Shown here: one piece after another, positions 4,545-58,795 of the stretch
How the letters are laid out: each line of letters opens with the position of its first letter
Numbering within the stretch: position 1 is the first letter of the stretch
From: Nitrospiraceae bacterium
Lineage (GTDB): Bacteria; Nitrospirota; Thermodesulfovibrionia; Thermodesulfovibrionales; UBA1546
Length of the DNA stretch: 63,181 bases
Reading direction: 5' to 3'
Assembly: GCA_003599795.1 (NCBI GenBank)
Contig: QZJQ01000037.1
Location: 1 to 63,181, forward strand
Program-made: the position numbers and the translations under genes
Notes under the pieces: model-generated
Databases searched by the model: none
What the model was told of the DNA's origin: nothing
What the model saw: only the letters and a program-made list of their open reading frames with translations

Positions 4545-4768
4545 AACCCTCAGAATTAAGGGCGTTGACAGTTGAAGAATTAAAACAAAAGGAGCAGGAT
4601 GTCAGAAAAGAGCTTTTTAACCTGAAGTTCAGGCTTGCCACAGGTGAAGTAGAAAATCCTAAGCGTATAAATGCGCTTAGAAAAGATATAGCCAAGATAC
4701 TGACAATAACAACTGAGAAGTTATCAGCCTCGGCTGATTCGCCTGAGGCGAAAAAAGTTAAAAGTTAA
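4541..4768 (+). CDS. rpmC: 50S ribosomal protein L29 with repeat-encoded C-terminal tail
   Basis: L29 core [18 protein letters not shown]... The last ~14 aa ([15 protein letters not shown]) are encoded by two GC hairpins plus AAAGTTA words. Confidence 0.9.
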
Positions 4769-6899: not shown

Positions 6900-6983
6900 A
6901 AATAAATTTAAAATGCAAAATGCAAAGTTAAAAATTAATGAATTCCATATCTTTGAATTTTTAATTTTAAACTTTAAATTTTC
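6900..6983. repeat. AT-rich inverted word arrays in the rpsH-rplF spacer
   Basis: AAAATGCAAAATGCAAAGTTAAAAATTAATGAATTC...GAATTTTTAATTTTAAACTTTAAATTTTC. Confidence 0.85.
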
Positions 6984-8041: not shown

Positions 8042-8569
8042 ATGGTGAAAAGAATTGATCCGGATGGGCTGACTCTGAAAGATAAGGTTGTATTTATAAA
8101 CAGGGTTGCGAAGGTTGTGAAGGGCGGAAGAAGATTTTCTTTTGCTGCGCTGGTTGCTGTCGGAAACGGGGACGGCATAGTGGGCATAGGTAAAGGCAAG
8201 GCAAAGGAAGTTCCAGAGGCAATAAGAAAGGCCGTTGAACAGGCAAAGAAATCATTGGTTAAATTCCCCCTGAAAGATGGAACAATTCCCCATAGGATAA
8301 CAGGCAGATTCGGTTCCGGTTATATTGTTATGAATCCTGCAGTCAAGGGAACAGGGCTTATTGCAGGCGGCGCTGTAAGGGCGGTGCTGGATGTTGCCGG
8401 AATTCAGGATATTGTTGCCAAGGCAATCGGCAGCCATAATCCTTATAATACCGCAGAGGCTACAATTGACGGCTTGCTGAAGCTTAAAGATCCTGATTCG
8501 GTTCGCAAGTTGAGAGGAAGGACAGAGGAAGAAGCGCAGGAAACAAACTCGCCGCAGGCGAGTAAATAG
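8042..8569 (+). CDS. rpsE: 30S ribosomal protein S5 with short hairpin-encoded tail
   Basis: [10 protein letters not shown] motif. The C-terminal ..ETNSPQASK overlaps the hairpin ACTCGCC-GCA-GGCGAGT. Confidence 0.95.
8547..8563. repeat. GC mini-hairpin at the rpsE 3' end
   Basis: ACTCGCC-GCA-GGCGAGT, encoding NSPQAS. Confidence 0.8.
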
Positions 8570-9124: not shown

Positions 9125-10432
9125 ATGAGAATCCTTTCAAACTTACAGAATATCTTTAGAGTCCCTGAGTTAAAAAACAGGGTAATCTTTACGCTCTCGC
9201 TTCTTATTGTATACAGGATAGGAGGCCATATACCGACTCCGGGCATAAACGGCGAGGAGCTGAGTAAATTCCTTGCCGAAAGCGGCGCGGGCGCTCTCAT
9301 GGGGTTCTTTGATATGTTTTCAGGCGGAGCGCTTTCAAGGGTTACCATATTTGCCCTTGGGATTATGCCTTATATAAGCGCCTCAATTATTTTTCAGCTC
9401 CTGACAGTTGTTATCCCCGCAATCGGCAAGCTTGCCAAAGAAGGAGAAGCAGGCAGAAAGAAGATTACCAGATATACAAGATATGCAACAGTTGTTATAA
9501 GCGCAATCCAGTCATTAGGCATTGCCGTTGGACTTGAGAGCATGGCAGGCGGCGCTTTTATACAGAGCCCGGGCTGGTCATTCAGGCTGATGACAATGAT
9601 AACGCTTACATCAGGCACGGCGTTTATAATGTGGCTTGGGGAACAGATAACGGAAAGGGGAATAGGCAACGGTATATCGCTTATAATCTTTGCCGGAATT
9701 GTGGCAAGATTCCCTAACGCCGTAATAAGCACCTATCAATTGTTGAGAGCAGGAGAGCTTTCAATATTCCTTGTTATCTTTCTTGTTACGATGATGGTTG
9801 CCGTTATAGGCGTGATTATATTTATTGAAAGAGGGCAGAGAAAGATACCGGTTCAGTATGCAAAGCGGCTTGTCGGCCGCAAGATATACGGAGGCCAGAG
9901 CACTCACCTGCCTTTGAAGGTCAACACATCAGGCGTTATCCCGCCAATATTTGCGTCTTCAATAATAATGTTTCCTGCAACTATAGCAGGGTTTATAGCA
10001 ATCCCGTGGGTTCAGGGCGTTGCAAAGCAGCTTTCTCCGGGCACTATTCTTTATACAACTCTATATGTCGGCATGATATTTTTCTTTGCTTATTTTTACA
10101 CCGCAATCGTGTTTAACCCTGTGGATATAGCGGACAATCTGAAAAAATACGGGGGATATATCCCAGGCGTCAGGCCGGGCCAGAAGACATCGGAATACAT
10201 TTACAGGGTCATGTCAAGATTGACTTTTGTCGGCGCAGTGTACCTTGGAGTTGTGTGTATTATTCCCGAGATTCTTATAAGCAAGTTCAATGTGCCTTTT
10301 TATTTTGGAGGGACTTCTCTTCTGATTGTTGTAGGGGTTGCCCTTGACACAGTGTCTCAGATTGAGTCGCATCTCGTTACCCGCTCATATGAGGGCTTTT
10401 TAAAGAAGGGCAGGATAAAAGGCAGGAGGTAA
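9125..10432 (+). CDS. secY: Preprotein translocase subunit SecY
   Basis: 435 aa polytopic membrane protein; spc operon position. Confidence 0.97.
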   Translation: MRILSNLQNIFRVPELKNRVIFTLSLLIVYRIGGHIPTPGINGEELSKFLAESGAGALMGFFDMFSGGALSRVTIFALGIMPYISASIIFQLLTVVIPAIGKLAKEGEAGRKKITRYTRYATVVISAIQSLGIAVGLESMAGGAFIQSPGWSFRLMTMITLTSGTAFIMWLGEQITERGIGNGISLIIFAGIVARFPNAVISTYQLLRAGELSIFLVIFLVTMMVAVIGVIIFIERGQRKIPVQYAKRLVGRKIYGGQSTHLPLKVNTSGVIPPIFASSIIMFPATIAGFIAIPWVQGVAKQLSPGTILYTTLYVGMIFFFAYFYTAIVFNPVDIADNLKKYGGYIPGVRPGQKTSEYIYRVMSRLTFVGAVYLGVVCIIPEILISKFNVPFYFGGTSLLIVVGVALDTVSQIESHLVTRSYEGFLKKGRIKGRR

Positions 10433-11178
10433 TGATTGTCATAAAGACTCCTGGGGAAATTGAGCGGATGGCTCATGCCTGTAAAATAGTTGCTGAGATT
10501 CTGGAAGACCTGAGGGAATTTGTGAAACCGGGCATTACAACAAAAGAGATAGAGATGTTTGCAGAAGAAAAAATAATTTCAAAGGGCGCGACCCCGGCAT
10601 TTAAGGGATACAGGGGATACCCTGCGAGCATTTGTACATCTGTAAATGACCAGGTTGTTCACGGGATTCCGTCCCGTTTGAGGATTAACGAAGGGGATGT
10701 GTTAAGTATAGACCTTGGAGTTTACAGGGATGGTTTTTATGGTGATGGGGCAGTTACCCTGCCTGTCGGCGAGGTAAGCCCGCTTGCAAAAAAACTTTTA
10801 AGGGTAACAGAAGAAGCCCTTTATAAAGGGATAGAAAAAGCGACGCCCCGCAACAGGGTGTCGGATATATCGTCTGCGATTCAGAATTATGTTGAGGCGA
10901 ACGGTTTTTCAGTGGTGAAGGCATTTGTCGGGCATGGAATCGGCATGTCGCTTCATGAAGAACCTCAGGTTCCGAATTTCGGCATCTCAGGGCAGGGACC
11001 AAGACTGAAAGAAGGCATGACCTTAGCAATTGAGCCGATGGTTAATACAGGCGGGCATGAGGTCAGCATACTTGACGATGGGTGGACGGCAGTAACTATG
11101 GACAGCGGGCTCTCGGCGCATTTTGAGCATACGATTGCCGTTACTGACGGAGACGCAAGAATCTTGACGAAAATGTAG
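10432..11178 (+). CDS. map: Methionine aminopeptidase type I
   Basis: 248 aa M24A fold. The start shares 1 nt with the secY stop (TAATG). No adk lies between them. Confidence 0.95.
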   Translation: MIVIKTPGEIERMAHACKIVAEILEDLREFVKPGITTKEIEMFAEEKIISKGATPAFKGYRGYPASICTSVNDQVVHGIPSRLRINEGDVLSIDLGVYRDGFYGDGAVTLPVGEVSPLAKKLLRVTEEALYKGIEKATPRNRVSDISSAIQNYVEANGFSVVKAFVGHGIGMSLHEEPQVPNFGISGQGPRLKEGMTLAIEPMVNTGGHEVSILDDGWTAVTMDSGLSAHFEHTIAVTDGDARILTKM

Positions 11179-19009: not shown

Positions 19010-19110
19010 TGACAGTGTCAGAGTATCAAAGTATCATTCGCCTCAGGCGAACCCGCCGAGGCGGGGAGCAACTTTGACCCTATGACACTTTGACTCTTTG
19101 ACACTTTAAC
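19009..19110. repeat. Composite element: 23-nt inverted word arms flanking two GC mini-hairpins
   Basis: Arm 19014-19036 (AGTGTCAGAGTATCAAAGTATCA) matches the reverse complement of 19083-19105 at 19 of 23 positions. The centre holds TTCGCC-TCA-GGCGAA and CCCGC-CGAG-GCGGG. Confidence 0.85.
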
Positions 19111-36450: not shown

Positions 36451-36520
36451 GTTGAAAGTCAGAAGTTAGAAGTTAAGAGTTTTTTAATTTTTAACTTTTA
36501 ATTTTTCACTTTCAACTTTA
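36451..36520. repeat. AT-rich word array as inverted arms (aprA-qmoA spacer)
   Basis: GTTGAAAGTCAGAAGTTAGAAGTTAAGAG...TTTTTAACTTTTAATTTTTCACTTTCAAC. Confidence 0.85.
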
Positions 36521-36543
36521 AACTGTGCTTTTTGGAGGATAAG

Positions 36544-45979: not shown

Positions 45980-46966
45980 TCAGATTCCCTCAATCACCGC
46001 CGCTGCCAGAAGCGGGAACATTATCTCGTGATGGCCTGTGAGGGCATATGAGCATCCTTTTTGCATGGTAGGCCTTTTAAGGACATTTTGATGAGGCCTG
46101 TAGTGCTGGACAAAATCCATATTCACTGTGGTAATGTTTTCAACTTTGCTGCCGAGGTTTCTCGCCACGGTCAATGCCTTTAAAAAAACTTCAGGCATAA
46201 TGACAGCAGATCCTAAATTTATATAAACGCCGCCCTCAAGGTCTGATATTACGGATGTCAGGAGTTTGAAATCTCTAAGGCTTCCCTCGCCGATAGCTCT
46301 GCCGTCTGCCTGCGGATGCATGTGGATTATGTCCGTGCCTACTGCAACATGGACAGTTGCAGGGATTTTAAGCTTATATGCAGAGCCGAATATGCTCATT
46401 TCCCTGTACTTGAATCTTGTCGCCTCAGGCGACTCGCCGGGGCGAGAATTCTGAATCATCCAGCCGAGTGACTTCCCAATGCCGTAACCTTTCTTTGCCC
46501 CGCTGTTTATAGCCTTGTTGATATATTCTCCTGTCTCCTTTGCCATTCCAAAAGTGCCCTTGCACAACTCCTCTGCAACGTCTTCTGAGGTCTTACCTGT
46601 GTATGACAGTTCAAAATCATGGACAATGCAGGCGCCGTTTGTTGCAATTGCGGTTATTATGCCTTTGTTCATAAGGTCCGTTATAACAGGAGATAACCCC
46701 ACTTTTATCGGATGAGCTCCCATTCCGAGGATTACGGGCCTTTTGTTCTTCCTTGCCTTTATTATTGCCTTTACAATTAATTTGAAGTTTCGTGCCGCAA
46801 GCGCATCAGGCAGGTTATTAATAAAGCCCTTGAATGAATGTCCGGCTTCATGCGGGATTGCTGAGAGTGAAACCTCTACTTTGCTCTTTCTTTTTGATAG
46901 AGAATAGGTCCTGATTTTTTTAAGCGAAATAGGAGTATATTTTTTCATCGTGCTGAATTTTAACAT
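45980..46966 (-). CDS. Deoxyhypusine synthase-like family protein
   Basis: ILGMGAHPIKVGLSPVITDLMNKGIITAIATNGACIVHDFE resembles the bacterial DHS-like (PF01916) family. It carries a 27-nt double-hairpin insert. Confidence 0.6.
   Translation of the reverse strand: MLKFSTMKKYTPISLKKIRTYSLSKRKSKVEVSLSAIPHEAGHSFKGFINNLPDALAARNFKLIVKAIIKARKNKRPVILGMGAHPIKVGLSPVITDLMNKGIITAIATNGACIVHDFELSYTGKTSEDVAEELCKGTFGMAKETGEYINKAINSGAKKGYGIGKSLGWMIQNSRPGESPEATRFKYREMSIFGSAYKLKIPATVHVAVGTDIIHMHPQADGRAIGEGSLRDFKLLTSVISDLEGGVYINLGSAVIMPEVFLKALTVARNLGSKVENITTVNMDFVQHYRPHQNVLKRPTMQKGCSYALTGHHEIMFPLLAAAVIEGI
46419..46445. repeat. Two adjacent GC mini-hairpins in-frame inside the DHS-like gene
   Basis: GTCGCC-TCA-GGCGAC plus TCGCC-GG-GGCGA; 27 nt = 9 codons, encoding RPGESPEAT. 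Confidence 0.85.
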
Positions 46967-48257: not shown

Positions 48258-48791
48258 CTACATGCCATAGACTATTCCGGCGCGTATTTCAGAAGCCAGA
48301 TTTCTCATAGCAGTTTCCGTTGCCTGCTCTTTTGCCGCAACCAAACTTTCTATATTGCCTGAACCTGAAAAAGATACAATAAAAACCCCTGTATTTCTTA
48401 ACTCTTTAACCTTCCCGTCAGGGGATGTAAGAAAAAATCTGGCTTTTATAATTACCTGATATTCGGATGCTACTCCTTCTTTTTCTGCCAGTGGGTTTAG
48501 CTTCAGGTCATCTATAGTGCCGCTTATTATATGTTTCGCGCTGCTTGAGATCATCATGCCGTTTCTTATGAGTTCATCCGCAAGCGCTTTCTGAAATTTA
48601 TCTTCTAATTTCGGTTCAAATGTCTTGTTTTCAATCCTGCCTATTTTGACAGAGGTAAAGGGCAGCGTGTCTCTGCCCTGCAGGGTATAACCGCAGCCAG
48701 CTAATAGAAATGCAAAATTAAAAATTAAAAGTGCAAAATTAATGAAAAATTTTGAATTTTGGATTGAATTTTTGAATTTTGATTTTTCCAT
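48258..48791 (-). CDS. lptE: LPS-assembly lipoprotein LptE
   Basis: Lipobox LLAGC followed by GYTLQGRD. Sits between leuS and holA. The N-terminal ~33 codons lie in word-repeat DNA. Confidence 0.8.
   Translation of the reverse strand: MEKSKFKNSIQNSKFFINFALLIFNFAFLLAGCGYTLQGRDTLPFTSVKIGRIENKTFEPKLEDKFQKALADELIRNGMMISSSAKHIISGTIDDLKLNPLAEKEGVASEYQVIIKARFFLTSPDGKVKELRNTGVFIVSFSGSGNIESLVAAKEQATETAMRNLASEIRAGIVYGM
48706..48788. repeat. AT-rich word array forming the 5' end of lptE
   Basis: AAATGCAAAATTAAAAATTAAAAGTGCAAAATTAATGAAAAATTTTGAATTTTGGATTGAATTTTTGAATTTTGA. The 14-mer AATTTTGAATTTTG is shared with 49314-49327. Confidence 0.88.
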
Positions 48792-48797
48792 TTTAAT

Positions 48798-51413
48798 TTA
48801 TATTACTATATTAACAAGTTTGCCTTTAACAATAAAGACTTTTTTCAGCGCTTTCCCCTTTAAAATTTCCTGTATCTTAGGTTCGTCAAGAGCTTTCTCC
48901 CTCACATCATCGTCGGGGAGCCCGGCAGGTATCATAATCTTTGCCTTTACTTTGCCGTTAATCTGAATAACGAGCTCTATTTCTTCCTCTTGTGCGATGC
49001 TCTCATCCCATAGAGGCCATTTCTGTTCAAGTATGCTTTTTTTGTTGCCTATGGATTCCCACAGTTCTTCCGATATATGCGGAGAAAATGGAGAAAGCAA
49101 AAGCACAAGCGTCTCAATGCCGAATCTGAATGCTTTCCAGTCGCTGTCTGATTTTGGTTCAAATGAGCTTAGATCATTCACAAGCTCCATAAGCGCTGCA
49201 ATCGCTGTATTGAAGTGGTATTCGCGCTCTATGTCGTTTGTAACCCGTTTTATGGTCTGATGAGTCTTTCGTAAAAGGCTGACAGCCGACAGCTGACAGT
49301 TTGAAAGTTCTTCAATTTTGAATTTTGCATTTTGAATTTGAACTTTGTTTTTATAGACTATTCCCCATATCCTGTTCAAAAACCTGTAAGCTCCCTCAAC
49401 TCCCTGGTCAGACCATTCAAGGTCCCTTTCAGGCGGCGCTGCAAAGAGCGAGAAGAGCCTTGATGTGTCTGAGCCGTATCTGTTTATAAGATGGTCAGGG
49501 TCAATGACATTCTTCTTTGATTTTGACATCTTCTCAACCCGTCCTATGTCAACAGCCTTTCCGCATTTTATGCACTTCTCATCCTTAACATCTTCAGGCA
49601 AAAGCCAGCCGTGCTCAGGACATTTCAATGTTTCCTTGCATACCATTCCCTGCGTGAGAAGGTTTGTGAAAGGCTCCGGAGAGTTAATGATGCCAAGGTC
49701 TTTTATAACACGGGTAAAGAACCTTGAATAGAGGAGATGCAGCACTGCGTGTTCAACGCCGCCGACATACTGGTCAACAGGCATCCAGTAACTTATTGGG
49801 GATTGGGGATTGGGGGTTAGGGATTGGAAATCAATCTTACCATTGTCAACGCAATATGCAACAAAATACCATGATGAATCAACAAATGTGTCCATAGTAT
49901 CCGTCTCACGTCTTGCCTTGCCTTTGCATTTTGGACAAATTGTATTTACAAATTTTTCTGACTCTGCAAGCGGTGACCCGCCTGTGCCTGTGAATTTCAC
50001 ATCCTCGGGAAGGATTACCGGCAGTTCTTGCTCAAGGACCGGAACAACACCGCATTGCTCACAATAAATTACCGGTATAGGCGTTCCCCAGTATCTCTGC
50101 CTTGATATTCCCCAGTCACGGAGCTTGTAATTTACTACCCTTTTGCCAAGGCCTTTTTTCTCTATGTGCTTTGCTATCTCTATTCGTGCAACGTCACTTT
50201 TTAGCCTGCTGTATGAACTTGAGTCAATGAGAACCCCATCTTCTTCGAACGCAGCTTCAAGCTCGTGAGGGTTCGAGGGAAGAATTGTATTTTCACTTGA
50301 CCCCTTGACTCCTTGTCTCCTCTGCGACTCGCCTGAGGCGAGACCCCTTGACTCCTGTACTATTACTTCCCTTATCGGCAGCTTGTACTTCTTTGCAAAC
50401 TCAAAATCCCGCTGGTCATGCGCAGGAACTGACATTATAGCTCCTGTGCCGTATTCCATCAGAACAAAGTTTGCTATATAAATTGGAATCTTCTCATCAT
50501 TAGCCGGATTGACTGCATAGTGCCCTGTAAAGAGCCCAATTTTTTCATCTTCCTTGCCGTAGTGCTCTTTGATTTTTTTAATTGCTTCCTTATCAGCGAC
50601 GAGTTTTTCTGCCAGTGGATGTGTTGGCGCAAGGCACACAAAGGTCGCGCCAAAAAGCGTATCTGCCCTTGTAGTAAATATGCGGATTTTTTCGTCTCTT
50701 CCGGCAACTTTGAAATCAGCCTCAAGCCCCTCGCTTTTCCCAATCCAGTTTTTTTGCATTAAGACTACTTTTTCAGGCCAGCCCTTAAGCTCATCACACG
50801 CCTTCAGAAGGTCTTCCGCATATTGCGTGATTCTGAAGAACCACTGCTCCAACTCTTTCTTGATTACGGCTGTATCGCATCTCCAGCATCCATTGTCAAT
50901 AACCTGCTCGTTTGCAAGAACAGTCATGCATGAAGGGCACCAGTTCACAAATGACGATTTTCTGTATGCAATCCCCTTCTCATACATCTTCAGGAAGAAC
51001 CACTGATTCCACTTGTAGTAATCAGGGCTGCATGTTGTAACCTCTCTGTCCCAGTCATAGCTGAGTCCGAGCTGGTTGAGCTGTTTTTTCATGTATGCGA
51101 TATTTTCGTAGGTCCATTTTGCAGGGTGGATACCCTCTTTTATCGCGGCGTTCTCAGCAGGCATTCCGAAGGCATCCCATCCCATCGGATGAATAACGTT
51201 AAAACCGCACATTCTTTTATATCTTGCGATTACGTCGCCGATTGCATAATTCCTGACATGGCCCATGTGGATTTTCCCTGAAGGGTAGGGGAACATTTCA
51301 AGGCAGTAGAATTTCTTTTTTGAAGAGTCTGCTTCAGTTTTGAAGATATTTCTCTCAGCCCAGTACTTCTGCCACTTCTGTTCAACTTTTTGCGGATTGT
51401 ATCGTTCTTCCAA
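48798..51413 (-). CDS. leuS: Leucyl-tRNA synthetase
   Basis: HMGHVRNY and KMSKSKKN class I motifs. A TTG start at 51413 after GGAG gives [18 protein letters not shown]. The 32 upstream ORF codons are unlikely to be coding. Confidence 0.95.
49279..49345. repeat. In-frame word arrays inside leuS (CTGACAG x3; TTTTGAA/TTTTGCA words)
   Basis: CTGACAGCCGACAGCTGACAG then CAATTTTGAATTTTGCATTTTGAATTTGAACTTT. Encodes [27 protein letters not shown]. Confidence 0.88.
49795..49827. repeat. In-frame heptamer array inside leuS: (ATTGGGG)x3 GTTAGGG ATTGG
   Basis: Three perfect heptamers at 49795-49815. Encodes [11 protein letters not shown]. Confidence 0.9.
50267..50357. mobile_element. Candidate miniature element in-frame inside leuS, with the same octamers as the four-helix-bundle gene arms plus a TCGCC hairpin
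   Basis: GGGTTCGAGGG (50269-50279), 16 nt, CTTGACCCCTTGACTCCTTG (50296-50315), CTCGCC-TGA-GGCGAG (50328-50342), ACCCCTTGACTCCTG. Confidence 0.6.
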
Positions 51414-51537
51414 AATGTTTTCTCCTCTATGAAATGTAGCACTTATTATATCCGTGCAGAGCGGGGATTGACAAGGGCAGAGGAAAGTGAAGATAAACGG
51501 GCTGAACACCGAAGGTGCTGCTCATCTTTTATTCGTT

Positions 51538-56892: not shown

Positions 56893-57570
56893 ATGAAGAA
56901 CAAAAAACTACTCTCAATCTGCGATAAACTCTTCAAATTCTTCGGCCCGCAGAACTGGTGGCCGGGCGATACGCCTTTTGAGATTGCCGTCGGCGCGATA
57001 CTTACGCAGAATACGAACTGGGGAAATGTAGAGAAGGCGATAAATAACCTTAAAAAAGCGAACGTCCTGAACTCAAAGGCAATCCACGATATGCCAGTAA
57101 AAAAACTTGCCTCATTAATACAGCCGTCTGGTTATTTTAATATCAAAGCAAAAAGGCTTAAGTCATTTATTAATTTCCTTATGAACGATTATCACGGAAG
57201 CATGAAGAATATGAAAAAGGAAGAAATGCATTCGCTCAGGGAAAAACTTCTCAGTGTCAATGGCATCGGGCCTGAGACAGCAGATTCAATTCTTCTCTAT
57301 GCTCTTGATAAACCCATTTTTGTTATTGACGCATATACCAAGAGGGTTCTTTCAAGGCATAATATTTTAGGGCATGATGAGGCATACGATAAATTTCAGG
57401 AGCTTTTCCATCTGTCTCTGAAAAAGGATGTAAAACTTTTTAATGAGTATCATGCGCTTTTTGTGAGAGTAGGGAAAATGTTTTGTAAGCCCAAGCCGAG
57501 ATGCGAAAAATGCCCGTTAAAAGAAAGGGTCAAAGGCTTCAAGGGTTCAAGGGTTCGAGTGAGATGCTAA
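56893..57570 (+). CDS. HhH-GPD superfamily (endonuclease III-related) DNA glycosylase
   Basis: LLSVNGIGPETADSILLY..VID HhH-GPD motif; FeS loop CKPKPRCEKC. The last 15 codons lie in the octamer array. Confidence 0.8.
   Translation: MKNKKLLSICDKLFKFFGPQNWWPGDTPFEIAVGAILTQNTNWGNVEKAINNLKKANVLNSKAIHDMPVKKLASLIQPSGYFNIKAKRLKSFINFLMNDYHGSMKNMKKEEMHSLREKLLSVNGIGPETADSILLYALDKPIFVIDAYTKRVLSRHNILGHDEAYDKFQELFHLSLKKDVKLFNEYHALFVRVGKMFCKPKPRCEKCPLKERVKGFKGSRVRVRC
57527..57559. repeat. Left arm: ~4 tandem octamers GGGKTCRA
   Basis: GGGTCAAA GGCTTCAA GGGTTCAA GGGTTCGA G. Confidence 0.9.
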
Positions 57571-57926
57571 AGAACTTTAAAGATTTAAAGGTCTGGCAAA
57601 AATCCTATGAGTTATCTTTGGAAATTTACAGGATTACAAAGAGATTTCCTTTAGAAGAAAAATATGGTCTCACGTCACAGATAAGAAGAGCGGCAGTATC
57701 TGTCACATCCAATATTGCAGAAGGATACGCAAGAAAAACAAGGCCGGAATATATTCAGTTCTTATATGTAGCTTATGGTTCTAACTGTGAGTTGGAGACT
57801 CAGATTTTGCTGTCTGGCGATTTAGGCTATATTAAAAGTGAAGAACTTAAACAACTTCAGGAGGAGATTAGTGAGATTGAAAGAATGTTAAAGGCTCTTA
57901 TTAAATCTCTGGAGGATAAAACTTGA
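57564..57926 (+). CDS. Four-helix-bundle protein (23S rRNA intervening-sequence protein / Avd-like family)
   Basis: 120 aa; FKDLKVWQKSYELSLEIYRITKRFPLEEKYGLTSQIRRAAVSVTSNIAEGYAR...YGSNCELETQ is the classic PF05635-type signature. Confidence 0.85.
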   Translation: MLKNFKDLKVWQKSYELSLEIYRITKRFPLEEKYGLTSQIRRAAVSVTSNIAEGYARKTRPEYIQFLYVAYGSNCELETQILLSGDLGYIKSEELKQLQEEISEIERMLKALIKSLEDKT

Positions 57927-57954
57927 CCCCTCGACCCCTTGACCCCTCGACCCC
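57922..57954. repeat. Right arm: ~4 tandem octamers, inverted relative to the left arm
   Basis: CTTGACCC CTCGACCC CTTGACCC CTCGACCC C. Its reverse complement is GGGGTCGA/GGGGTCAA x4. Confidence 0.9.
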
Positions 57955-58795
57955 TATTCGTGTTCTTTCCCTTGGATATTCTCCTTGCCCCAATGACACC
58001 TTTATTTTCTATGCGCTTGTACACGGGATGATAGACACCGGCGATTTGAAGTTTAATGAAATCCTCCTTGATGTTGAGACACTGAACCAAACGGCCTTGA
58101 AAGGCAAGCTTGATATAACAAAAGTTTCATATAATGCATTCGGGAATCTGAGGGATGATTACTGCCTTCTCCGCTCAGGCGGCGCGCTTGGAAGAGGATG
58201 CGGACCCTTGGTTGTGTCTTCAAAAGAATGTGAAATGAAAGATTTGAAAGGAAAGACAATAGCAATTCCCGGAGAGCTTACCACAGCGTATCTTCTTTTA
58301 CAGCTTTATGACCCTGATTTCAAAAATAATGTGCAAGCTATGCCGTTTAGTGAGATTATGGGAGCAGTGAAGAATGGAAAAGTTGATGCAGGGCTTATAA
58401 TCCATGAGAGCAGATTTACATATCCTTTGTACGGGCTAAAAAAAATAATTGACCTCGGAGAATGGTGGGAAAAAAAGACAGGGCTTCCCATCCCTCTTGG
58501 CTGCATAATCGCAAAGAGAAATCTCGGAATAGAATTAACAGAAAAGCTGGAAAGGCTGATAAGAGAGAGCGTGCAATATGCTATGAGCCGCCCTGAGATG
58601 CTGATGGCGAAATATATAAAAGAGCATTCACAGGAGCTTGATGATTCGGTTATTGAAAAACATATCAAGCTCTATGTCAATGATTATTCAATTGACATTG
58701 GCGATGACGGTATAAGGGCCGTAAGGAAACTTCTTGATATGGCAGAGGAGAGAGGGATAATAAAAAAATCAGCGATGCCTTTATTTATTGTTTAA
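57923..58795 (+). CDS. mqnD: 1,4-dihydroxy-6-naphthoate synthase (futalosine pathway), MqnD-like
   Basis: LSLGYSPCPNDTFIFYALVHG signature. The only in-frame start is TTG 57923, inside the right arm. Confidence 0.7.
   Translation: MTPRPLDPSTPIRVLSLGYSPCPNDTFIFYALVHGMIDTGDLKFNEILLDVETLNQTALKGKLDITKVSYNAFGNLRDDYCLLRSGGALGRGCGPLVVSSKECEMKDLKGKTIAIPGELTTAYLLLQLYDPDFKNNVQAMPFSEIMGAVKNGKVDAGLIIHESRFTYPLYGLKKIIDLGEWWEKKTGLPIPLGCIIAKRNLGIELTEKLERLIRESVQYAMSRPEMLMAKYIKEHSQELDDSVIEKHIKLYVNDYSIDIGDDGIRAVRKLLDMAEERGIIKKSAMPLFIV

Follow-up and report, generated by a model that had tools for sequence, protein, structure and literature searches.

A tract at positions 50267-50357 of the 63,181-nt stretch of Nitrospiraceae DNA analyzed here (the window) probably represents a degenerate, cargo-less hairpin element that consists of inverted 8-nt arrays of the GGNNTCAAGG family and is lodged in frame in a tolerant surface loop of the CP1 editing domain of leucyl-tRNA synthetase (LeuRS). 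The host open reading frame (ORF), leuS, was delineated on the minus strand (48798..51509) from the ORF list and its translation, with the true start probably located near 51416, and its closest relatives are leucine--tRNA ligases of Thermodesulfovibrionales (at most 88% identity). Re-reading of the sequence reproduced exactly the plus-strand letters given for 50267-50357 in the initial annotation, and the translation bore out its claim that the tract is in frame and stop-free within the minus-strand ORF, between the HDQRDFEFA motif and a downstream 17-residue motif. In-frame colonization of an essential housekeeping enzyme by repeats is best documented in Rickettsia, and the leuS tract would provide a clear case in a free-living lineage of Nitrospirota.

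Anatomy of the leuS insert

The insert is a composite of four parts, namely, an octamer array, a 16-nt core, a short inverted arm and a nested 27-nt double-hairpin module. On the sense strand, (AGGRGTCA)x4 is followed by the core and then by CCCTCGAACCC, an order that conforms to the inverted-array plan of two arrays with one shared 7-8-nt unit, inverted around a loop. The array comprises four units (sense strand AGGAGTCA/AGGGGTCA) and is divided into a distal part at 50343..50357 on the minus strand (plus strand ACCCCTTGACTCCTG, that is, ACCC CTTGACTC CTG), which on the sense strand includes the Q-E-S codons that form the 5' edge of the insert, and a proximal part at 50296..50315 on the same strand (plus strand CTTGACCCCTTGACTCCTTG, that is, CTTGACCC CTTGACTC CTTG), for which Tandem Repeats Finder reports a period of 8. 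The core, or loop (50280..50295, minus strand; plus strand AAGAATTGTATTTTCA, sense TGAAAATACAATTCTT), encodes (S)ENTIL, and the short inverted arm (50269..50279, minus strand; plus strand GGGTTCGAGGG), made of a TCGA-type unit, encodes P-S-N-P. No ORF for a four-helix-bundle or 23S rRNA intervening-sequence (IVS) protein is present in the tract. Reading-frame analysis of idealized arrays showed that all three frames of the G-rich array are free of stops and that the TCGA type is the only variant of the complementary arm that is open in all reading frames. In the mechanism we propose, an essential gene would retain only those versions that lack stops, preserve the frame and lie in a tolerant loop, and the complementary arm would be kept short and of the TCGA type, avoiding TGA.

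The 27-nt module (50316..50342, minus strand; sense CTCGCCTCAGGCGAG TCGCAGAGGAGA) encodes LASGESQRR and contains the CTCGCC-TGA-GGCGAG hairpin at 50328-50342. The initial annotation assigned this hairpin to the octamer element, an assignment that has to be abandoned because the hairpin belongs to a separate, second module nested there: the module splits the array exactly and in frame, its deletion lets the distal part run on into 50296-50315 and restores a perfect four-unit array with AGGAGTCAAGGGGTCA occurring twice, and the 11-nt palindrome CGCCTSAGGCG recurs in the window (4 occurrences against 0.01 expected). One copy of the palindrome lies in the loop of a different inverted-array hairpin (19014-19107), and the module is 83% complementary to 46420-46448 over 29 nt; the 12-nt direct repeat flanking the module is mere array periodicity. 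This second, unrelated repeat would have landed inside the array later, again in frame. Elhai and colleagues are said to have described, in 2008, small dispersed repeats (SDR) of Nostoc of ~21-27 nt that have hairpin potential and are nested in short-unit arrays without target duplication. The module resembles SDR not only in size (21-27 nt), hairpin potential and the presence of several copies, but also in being nested in a tandem short-unit array without target duplication; unlike SDR, it comes from another phylum, has another sequence and is represented by just four copies in 63 kb.

Relationship to the arms of a four-helix-bundle gene

About 7 kb away, the window encodes a four-helix-bundle protein of the 23S rRNA IVS-protein family (57565..57926, plus strand; NCBIfam TIGR02436, E = 4e-41; NF008911, E = 1e-44), hereafter the cargo, located between a left arm (57518..57562, plus strand; GGGTCAAA GGCTTCAA GGGTTCAA GGGTTCGAG) and a right arm (57921..57955, plus strand; (A)CTTGACCC CTCGACCC CTTGACCC CTCGACCC C). 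Translation of the left arm yields the C-terminal tail of the HhH-GPD glycosylase ORF located upstream, and the right arm contains both the stop codon of the cargo gene and the only in-frame start codon of the downstream ORF (TTG at 57923). The counterpart of the latter ORF in locus L005 belongs to the Pfam family VitK2_biosynth, and we accordingly take it to be MqnA-like. Locus L005 itself was considered as an empty site for the cargo element and rejected: its HhH-GPD/VitK2_biosynth interval is a different intergenic sequence in which no excision footprint is readable.

All the nearest relatives of the cargo gene (67-88% identity; loci L025-L031 and L077) have inverted arms of the GGNNTCAAGG type and share the junction arm-GAGTGAAA-ATG. 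Among 75 four-helix-bundle loci from many phyla, the flanks are mutually inverted beyond shuffles in 53, and tandem periods of 7 or 8 fit these flanks best in most cases. Between such arms, no cargo other than the four-helix-bundle protein (TIGR02436) was encountered, and no transposase, and our literature search found no paper that links genes for four-helix-bundle or IVS proteins to tandem-array arms. A duplicated cargo copy in L031 was also rejected as a guide to the element ends: the second copy arose by segmental duplication, is truncated and reaches past the arms, so neither clean ends nor a target duplication can be derived from it.

That the arms of the leuS tract belong to the same octamer family as those of the cargo gene, as initially proposed, is supported by both the distribution of words and the best local alignment. 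In the window, CCYYGAMYCC and its complement occur in the leuS tract and both cargo arms, with an isolated reverse-complement word, GGGTTCAGGG at 10008, as the sole exception, and CCTTGACYCC with one mismatch allowed yields 22 matches compared with 6.3 +/- 2.4 in shuffles. Aligned locally against the rest of the window, the tract matches the right arm of the cargo gene best (score 18, 24 of 28 bases identical); this score was reached by none of the 2713 background windows (maximum 16.5) and none of the 2000 shuffles (maximum 11). The octamer similarity, for which a comparison with a shuffled background had been suggested, is therefore above every shuffle, and chance k-mer similarity is ruled out by the word counts, one-mismatch shuffles and alignment controls. 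Furthermore, repeat family D1 is common to the proximal array (50296-50315) and 57921-57964, and GGNNTCAAGG units are shared by the tract, the arms at 57518-57955, L025-L031 and L077.

The initial description of the tract as a miniature of the same element thus stands with respect to the arm family; derivation by cargo loss was not confirmed, the sole further link being a short junction match. The insert junction CAAGTGAAAAT resembles the arm-GAGTGAAA-ATG junction of the cargo copies, and array-AGTGAAAAT in the insert matches array-GAGTGAAA-ATG over only 8-9 nt. We infer that the tract may descend from a cargo-bearing copy. The junction match favors the leuS sense strand as the orientation of the element, opposite to the plus-strand reading adopted initially, although arms that are inverted repeats leave the orientation ambiguous.

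Kinship with cargo-bearing copies, which share the plan of rRNA intervening sequences with an S23p ORF in the loop of a stem cleaved by RNase III (PMC4990558), also brings up an RNA-level function, whereby the inverted arrays would pair into a double-stranded stem in the leuS mRNA, and cleavage of this stem by RNase III would tune expression. This function appears very unlikely for the window copy: its sense strand folds no better than shuffles (z = -0.07; for the plus strand, z = -1.46), and the only hairpin left in the sense-strand fold is 6 bp long and comes from the nested module. A fuller copy in another leuS gene (L004, see below) does fold significantly (z = -3.8), but cutting inside an essential single-copy coding sequence would be costly. 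In the reading that we prefer, the tract would stay in the leuS mRNA and be translated as a low-complexity peptide of ~29 residues.

Turnover of the insert among LeuRS orthologues

The segment from HDQRDFEFA to VNYKLRDW spans 77 to 103 residues in 114 of the 115 relatives, the exception being P0015 (64 residues), in which part of the segment is absent. With 103 residues, the window segment is the longest among the 115 relatives, equaled by P0073, whereas the shortest close alleles, P0003 (88% identity) and P0005 (86%), have 77 residues, 26 fewer. The ortholog alignment recommended in the initial annotation accordingly identifies an in-frame insertion relative to the orthologues rather than a conserved LeuRS segment (115 relatives). 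The length of LeuRS ranges from 802 to 914 residues among the 120 relatives listed (a few flagged as partial); cassettes of this kind inflate and diversify LeuRS lengths and are a potential source of error when MAGs are used for alignment, phylogeny and gene calling.

The octamer element is found at the identical leuS site in L001, L003 and L004, in fuller or shorter versions, and the LeuRS proteins of these hosts are 88%, 77% and 69% identical to that of the window. Four independent assemblies have this element at this position, which rules out an assembly artefact, and the sharing of the site at such levels of identity contradicts a recent colonization of this genome. The L003 and L004 copies have a fuller core, and folding of the L004 copy yields a genuine hairpin (z = -3.78). 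The core, initially called unique, turned out to recur: its sense form GTGAAAATACAATT appears unchanged in the L004 leuS insert, from another lineage, and matches at 12 of 14 positions in L003, from a third lineage, so that, on comparison of the sequences, the window core appears to be a shortened form of the ~30-nt core of L003 and L004. The unit sequence and copy number differ among the leuS copies, and ENT(I/V) together with flanking residues recurs in the fuller copies (window, L003 and L004). Other lineages contain unrelated array hairpins at the same leuS site, and the short allele of L002, with CAGAAGTCAGAACTT, looks like the remnant of a different array; a truly empty site was not encountered in the clade, where even the 'short' alleles look like array remnants.

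The leuS genes of L004 and L105 differ in 85 of the 2529 aligned columns, 73 of these within 1004-1169, and are ~99.5% identical outside the cassette. Where L004 has the octamer element, L105 has a different octamer hairpin, (GCAGAAGT)n/(CTTCCGAA)n. Eleven further substitutions are located in the 54 nt immediately 5' of the cassette and point to a recombination patch. Where it is visible, turnover resembles an exchange of cassettes by recombination and not transposition. The flank-identity profiles of the window against L003 and L004 carry no signal on lateral cassette transfer, the 5' flank being conserved anyway. The turnover would involve array slippage, hairpin decay and nested insertions, as well as homologous recombination exchanging whole loop cassettes among leuS alleles. 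The natural allele series, which includes short, full-hairpin, decayed, nested and swapped forms, illustrates both the tolerance and the turnover of the inserts.

Location in the LeuRS structure

Mapping onto LeuRS structures, as suggested initially, placed the insert in a loop, between residues 365 and 370 of the Thermus LeuRS. The site does lie between the named motifs, but it belongs to a loop within the CP1 editing domain itself and not to a linker that follows this domain. The corresponding region comprises 4 residues in LeuRS of Thermus thermophilus (1h3n) compared with 27 in the window, and 15 in a 6q89-type LeuRS compared with 35, so the difference of ~20 residues given initially was about right. 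In the structure model, residues 362-383 have pLDDT < 50 and no secondary structure; the model is weak overall (mean pLDDT 67.7), and hence the low confidence at the insert is modest evidence for disorder. The insert peptide, ~29 residues long and of low complexity, is probably disordered according to this model and, as we infer, is translated and harmless.

Could the segment instead be a functional appendage of LeuRS, an addition to the editing domain that is peculiar to this lineage and under selection (say, a loop that binds a partner or contacts the tRNA), with only incidental likeness to the cargo arms? The reading frame is kept in all aligned LeuRS relatives, and the ENT(I/V) residues and their flanks are shared by the window, L003 and L004. 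Nevertheless, we consider such a role highly improbable: the segment is missing or swapped for unrelated sequence in the closest relatives and within a nearly identical backbone, it is of low complexity and predicted as coil at low confidence, it has no genuine relative among 1.84 billion representative proteins, and its likeness to the arms at the DNA level is significant. The protein comparison is that of a phmmer search with the 33-residue insert peptide, in which the sole match was an unrelated repetitive protein.

Search for dispersed copies and the probable origin of the insert

A junction scan of 185,579 species-representative genomes with the array-core pattern GGNNTCAAGNGAAAATACWRTT produced 19 matches, compared with ~17 estimated by chance for such information content; one match was clear, in leuS of MAG042 (GCA_040757475.1), and the array of one Nitrospinota match is possibly related. 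A dispersed family of the core-bearing form was not found in these genomes, nor was another cargo-less copy found in the 63-kb window. A word-index search with array plus core detected only very small ORFs that lack Pfam domains and translate (GGGTTCAA)n, none with the SSENTI core; this search missed the positive control P0078 and hence cannot exclude copies in other long proteins. Comparison with L001 and L002 showed no direct repeat flanking the insert that could be a target-site duplication, no transposase or other mobilizing gene was evident, and neither terminal inverted repeats of the insertion sequence (IS) type nor a RAYT gene was seen.

The failure to find a target duplication or dispersed core-bearing copies would be compatible with growth in place, in which tandem units of a low-constraint loop expand by replication slippage and are homogenized by gene conversion from arrays elsewhere, with no insertion and no cargo loss. 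The four-helix-bundle genes would then be secondary lodgers in pre-existing array hairpins, and the leuS tract an unloaded hairpin. The window indeed contains many 7-8-nt arrays and inverted-array hairpins of other units with no four-helix-bundle gene nearby (6910-6982, 19014-19107, 36456-36524 and 48714-48799), the variation of units and copy number among leuS copies fits slippage, and cargo-free convergent heptamer pairs are described for Xanthomonas and Nostoc (PMC4692102). However, slippage produces neither an inverted partner arm nor a conserved non-repetitive core, and leuS genes with only ~73% DNA identity share the 14-nt core without a single difference. Moreover, the type of arm follows the subfamily of the four-helix-bundle protein across differing genomic contexts, and sister lineages have unrelated hairpin families at the same leuS site. 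Growth in place thus seems unlikely, and the element would have arrived by insertion.

Comparison with known repeat systems

Rickettsia palindromic elements (RPEs) are ~100-150 bp long and form defined sequence families with dozens of copies per genome and a conserved encoded peptide. These short palindromic repeats reside in frame in unrelated, often essential genes, where translation turns them into additional peptide segments at positions that the fold of the host protein can accommodate (PMC10969869). The parallel with RPEs drawn in the initial annotation fits as a way of working (PMC10969869), while the tract itself falls outside the RPE family. Judging from the sequence, the leuS tract resembles RPEs as an apparent in-frame insertion in a protein-coding gene with the frame open throughout. 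It differs in being built of tandem 8-nt units, which are not known to be related in sequence to RPEs, and in belonging to a free-living Nitrospirota lineage (Thermodesulfovibrionales); whereas RPEs have many dispersed copies per genome, the core-bearing form was found only in leuS across the 185,579 species genomes. With respect to the long hairpin typical of RPEs, folding gave z = -0.07 and -1.46 for the sense and plus strands of the window copy, respectively, and z = -3.78 for the L004 copy.

The S23p-type rRNA intervening sequences of Coxiella and Leptospira consist of a stem of terminal inverted repeats, cleaved by RNase III, with an ORF in its loop (PMC4990558). The cargo-bearing relative in the window likewise has a TIGR02436-family ORF in the loop of such a stem, and both kinds of elements occupy positions at which the product of the host gene tolerates interruption (PMC4990558). 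However, rRNA intervening sequences are located in rRNA helices 9, 25 and 45 and are cut out by RNase III, whereas the present elements lie between or inside protein-coding genes and have stems made of tandem 8-nt arrays, and the leuS copy is ORF-free and must stay in the mRNA. As small, non-autonomous, hairpin-forming repeats, the elements are also reminiscent of MITEs, REP and REPIN, and some MITEs are known to form in-frame fusions within genes (PMC10969869). In contrast to MITEs and REPINs, the arms of which are unique inverted repeats, the leuS element has tandem arrays as arms, with no IS-type terminal repeats, target-site duplication, transposase or RAYT gene seen.

It is conceivable, if rather doubtful, that the four-helix-bundle genes and the cargo-less derivatives make up a single widespread, undescribed class of hairpin elements with stems of inverted 7-8-nt arrays. 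If so, these elements would settle where a transcript or product tolerates an extra stem or loop, namely, at the tips of rRNA helices, at junctions between genes and in loops on the surface of essential proteins; three hypervariable LeuRS loops of Thermodesulfovibrionales would be landing pads in which gain, replacement and decay could be traced allele by allele; and experiments could begin to address how rRNA intervening sequences and STRR-type arrays spread, which has long lacked an explanation.

According to PMC4692102, the short tandemly repeated repetitive (STRR) heptamer arrays of Calothrix/Anabaena, Xanthomonas and Nostoc consist of tandem 7-nt units, usually about four, that are scattered over the genome, often in close convergent pairs; they are mainly intergenic, under-represented in coding regions and interpreted as G-quadruplex formers. 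In the passages of that source consulted, no link of heptamer arrays to four-helix-bundle genes or to in-frame occupation of essential genes was found. The leuS insert ties such STRR-like short-unit arrays to the genes of four-helix-bundle 'IVS proteins'. The leuS array differs from STRR in having a period of 8 rather than 7, comprises four units once the nested module is removed, and is accompanied by many other 7-8-nt arrays in the window. One of these, the ATTGGGG array inside leuS, matches the cyanobacterial STRR1 unit CCCCAAT.

The leuS insert and its relation to the octamer family

The leuS ORF (48798..51509, minus strand, 903 codons), whose translation is a bacterial leucyl-tRNA synthetase (LeuRS) most closely related, at no more than 88% identity, to proteins from Thermodesulfovibrionales (Nitrospirota) MAGs among public sequences, contains the repeat tract 50267-50357. 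The plus-strand sequence reported for this tract in the initial annotation matches the window exactly, and the in-frame placement is borne out, with the reading frame running across the tract without a stop codon. Within the 63-kb window, the motif CCYYGAMYCC and its complement are confined to the tract and to both arms of gene 57565-57926, save for a single word at 10008; the product of this gene is a genuine member of TIGR02436 (E = 4e-41), the four-helix-bundle family of 23S rRNA IVS proteins. A search allowing one mismatch yielded 22 matches versus 6.3 +/- 2.4 in shuffled sequences. Furthermore, the best local alignment partner of the tract elsewhere in the window is the right arm of the same gene (24 of 28 bases identical), with a score of 18 that was reached by none of the 2713 background windows and none of the 2000 shuffles, so that the octamer similarity cannot be attributed to the k-mer background, an objection anticipated in the initial annotation. 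The next-best background windows all carry another motif, the CGCCTSAGGCG hairpin.

The tract is thus real and non-random, and its first description, as an insert that derives from a repeat of the octamer family and keeps the frame, was correct. To this description we add a nested second element, a conserved core, same-site copies in distant alleles, hotspot behaviour, a recombinational cassette swap and a location in the editing domain. The mobility of the leuS element, the loss of its cargo, its orientation and its translation are what we infer.

Distribution among LeuRS orthologues

The segment between HDQRDFEFA and VNYKLRDW was compared across 115 LeuRS relatives. Its length is 77 to 103 residues in 114 of these; in the remaining protein, P0015, it spans 64 residues and part of the segment is missing. 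The window segment, at 103 residues, is the joint longest with that of P0073. The close relatives P0003 (88% identity) and P0005 (86%) have the 77-residue form (...EPEQKSELTEAYEDEG...), P0002 (88%) carries a shorter version of the window insert, SRVQRFKGSSENKM, and longer versions are found in P0031 (77%), SRDQGIKGSRENTVTHPVTGSLEPSAPS, and P0078 (69%), SGVQGFKDSSENTISHSVTTPLESSTPHE. Comparison with solved structures shows that Thermus LeuRS has 4 residues (366-369) in place of the 27 of the window protein. Given this variation, the insert cannot be dismissed as a homologous segment of equal length common to all orthologues.

On the leuS sense strand, all four copies of the insert share a plan in which a G-rich octamer array of GGNNTCAAGG units is followed by a core starting with (G)TGAAAATAC. 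Three copies continue beyond the core with an inverted array (CCCTCGAACCC...), and the copy in the metagenome locus L001 has lost its distal arm. The core is about 30 nt long in loci L003 and L004 (GTGAAAATACWRTTWCTCACYCGGTCACT), of which the window retains a 16-nt remnant. The window and L004 share a 14-nt core stretch without a mismatch despite only about 73% identity of the leuS DNA, which suggests that the element copies are younger than the divergence of the host genes or else that the core is constrained.

A nested 27-nt module

The CTCGCC-TGA-GGCGAG hairpin, originally considered a part of the octamer element, turns out to belong to a second, nested element. Removal of 27 nt of the sense strand, CTCGCCTCAGGCGAGTCGCAGAGGAGA (window 50316-50342, coding for LASGESQRR), restores a perfect four-unit array, AGGAGTCA AGGGGTCA AGGAGTCA AGGGGTCA, and keeps the frame. 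The sister allele in L001 lacks the module, which therefore entered later than the octamer element. Four copies of the 11-nt palindrome CGCCTSAGGCG are present in the window, compared with 0.01 expected. Small GC hairpins directly adjoin the copies at 4740-4750, at 19039-19049, which falls within the loop of a further hairpin made of inverted arrays, and at 46421-46431, which lies in frame in the GSU2086-family ORF 45980..46966 (minus strand) and is read as ...SRPGESPEATR...; next to the copy within the leuS tract (50330-50340), there is a decayed, non-palindromic remnant of the GC hairpin. Over 29 nt, the copy at 46420-46448 shows 83% complementarity to that in leuS. By back-translation, FASGEP-type peptides in other variable LeuRS loops of the relatives match the translation of TTCGCCTCAGGCGAACC, the form seen at 19039. 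The module resembles small dispersed repeats that Elhai reportedly described in Nostoc in 2008 (work cited in PMC3116915). A further GC hairpin similar to the module, ACTCGCCGCAGGCGAGT, is located at 8534-8560, at the end of ORF 8042..8569, and could be either a terminator or another copy.

Structural tolerance and translatability

Structure mapping, as proposed in the initial annotation, places the insertion site between Thermus LeuRS residues 365 and 370, a C-terminal position within the CP1 editing domain; constructs that consist of the editing domain alone also align as far as the insertion point. In an AlphaFold2 model built from 59 sequences, which is of moderate overall quality (mean pLDDT only 67.7), the editing-domain blocks flanking the insert on both sides have pLDDT of 80-89, and the insert itself (residues 362-383) has pLDDT below 50 and no secondary structure.

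The G-rich arrays of the octamer family have no stop in any of the three frames, each of which codes for the same 8-residue period. Among the complementary arrays, TGA interrupts every frame of the TTGA type, so that TCGA-type units are the only open ones. The leuS sense strand combines a long G-rich array with a short distal arm of TCGA-type sequence, an arrangement that is what a translatability filter would leave. The RNA hairpin of the window copy is decayed (z = -0.07); the L004 copy folds well (z = -3.8).

Hotspot behaviour and cassette turnover

Neighbour-joining analysis of 66 LeuRS sequences shows a patchy distribution of the insert types, and sister lineages carry unrelated inserts such as PPLPPFAKGGRGGI, GAGLVPAQESGQPQGLPL, SELQTSNSEL, QKSEVRSQKSE and STEVTSELPNFRTSEL. 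The proteins P0078 and P0106 are identical beyond the loop and its immediate flanks, save for two single substitutions. Their genes (in L004 and L105, respectively) differ in 85 of the 2529 aligned columns, 73 of which fall within columns 1004-1169. Beyond this 166-column stretch, which holds the swapped loop cassette (L004 11004-11170, L105 11004-11158), the DNA is about 99.5% identical. The L004 cassette is the octamer element, with its GGATTCAAGG hairpin; in L105, an octamer hairpin of another kind, (GCAGAAGT)n/(CTTCCGAA)n, takes its place. Another 11 substitutions are clustered in the 54 nt directly 5' of the cassette, a pattern that we read as the probable signature of an imported recombination patch. 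Collectively, these observations indicate that the leuS loop is a hotspot whose turnover is partly recombinational.

Across the Thermodesulfovibrionales, two more LeuRS loops (window residues ~522-540 and 694-712) are filled with repeats and just as hypervariable. In the window, they contain in-frame arrays of ATTGGGG (49795-49827; 4.7 units, coding for TPNPQSPIS) and AATTTTG (five units, 49314-49347). ATTGGGG is complementary to CCCCAAT, the unit of cyanobacterial STRR1. In L005, the closest relative on a long contig, yet another hairpin, CCCCCCCTTACCAAAGGGGGG, coding for QPPLTKGGIKGG, occupies the insert site (~11060-11140), and many relatives have similar peptides of the PPFAKGGRGG type both here and in their second variable loop.

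Four-helix-bundle genes with inverted-array arms

Scanning metagenomes with the four-helix-bundle protein as query yielded 80 loci. The closest ones (L025-L031 and L077, 67-88% identity) all have GGNNTCAAGG-type arms and share the inner junction arm-GAGTGAAA-ATG; the arms of distant relatives consist of very different 7- or 8-nt units, e.g., AGCTAGA, GAGATGT, AGTGAAT and GATTCAA. In 53 of the 75 loci with enough flanking sequence, the upstream flank matches the downstream one as an inverted copy better than in any of 30 shuffles, and the best tandem period is mostly 7, sometimes 8. Across many phyla in this set (L025-L104), TIGR02436-like genes are bracketed by inverted 7- or 8-nt arrays with a unit that varies between lineages. 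Therefore, the octamer element of the window is one family in a broad class in which a four-helix-bundle ORF lies in the loop of an inverted short-unit-array stem. The same plan is seen in S23p-bearing rRNA intervening sequences, in which terminal inverted repeats pair into a stem for RNase III cleavage (PMC4990558); the elements described here lie outside rRNA. Within the limited literature covered, we found no description linking four-helix-bundle/IVS-protein genes to tandem-array arms or to in-frame occupation of LeuRS.

At window 57518-57958, the HhH-GPD glycosylase ORF upstream takes its C-terminal tail (KGFKGSRVRVRC) from the left arm, and the right arm contains both the stop codon of the four-helix-bundle gene and, with TTG at 57923, the sole in-frame start of the ORF downstream. 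The counterpart of this last ORF in L005 has a Pfam VitK2_biosynth domain. At this locus, L005, the closest relative, has a different intergenic sequence of ~170 nt without a four-helix-bundle gene. L031 contains a truncated second gene copy on the same contig (3940-4160 and 7870-8100), which spans the left arm and the upstream AACGGATG-type array; it diverges ~160 nt into the ORF and is therefore a segmental duplicate, not a clean transposition.

Origin of the leuS insert and comparison with known repeats

In the initial annotation, the tract was described as a cargo-less miniature of the element around the four-helix-bundle gene. The arms indeed belong to the same octamer family; the orientation assigned, however, is on balance opposite to that favoured by the core, which would place the element on the leuS sense strand. 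The inner junction of the insert, CAAGTGAAAAT, resembles the arm-to-start-codon junction of the cargo copies, GAGTGAAAATG or GAGTAAAATG, over 8-9 nt only, and since each arm is an inverted repeat of the other, these bases can also be taken as the right-hand junction. A scan for the array-core junction in one genome per species produced a sole clear match, to leuS of MAG042 (GCA_040757475.1), and two peptide searches detected no other host protein, the second having missed its positive control and being uninformative for long proteins. Descent of the tract from a cargo-bearing copy is therefore plausible but unproven. A hairpin that never carried cargo is a live alternative, and several cargo-less inverted-array hairpins with other units are present in the window.

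Rickettsia palindromic elements are in frame, translated and located at tolerant positions (PMC10969869), so that the parallel drawn in the initial annotation holds for functional behaviour; it does not extend to construction, which differs, or to copy number because, as far as testable, the leuS insert is not multi-copy. Identification as a MITE was rejected because both a target duplication and a transposase partner are absent. STRR-type heptamer arrays have units similar to those of the leuS octamer element. These arrays form convergent pairs in Xanthomonas and Nostoc, were reported to be under-represented within coding sequences and were interpreted as G-quadruplex formers (PMC4692102).

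The cargo-less inverted 7-8-nt array hairpins between genes of the window are located at 19014-19107, 36456-36524, 48714-48799 and 6910-6982, with units AGTATCAA/ACTTTGAC, AAGTTAG/TTTTAAC and AAAATTA/AATTTTG. That at 48714-48799 takes in the stop codon of leuS together with the initial codons of ORF 48258..48791; in L001-L005, the counterparts of this ORF have a Pfam LptE domain.
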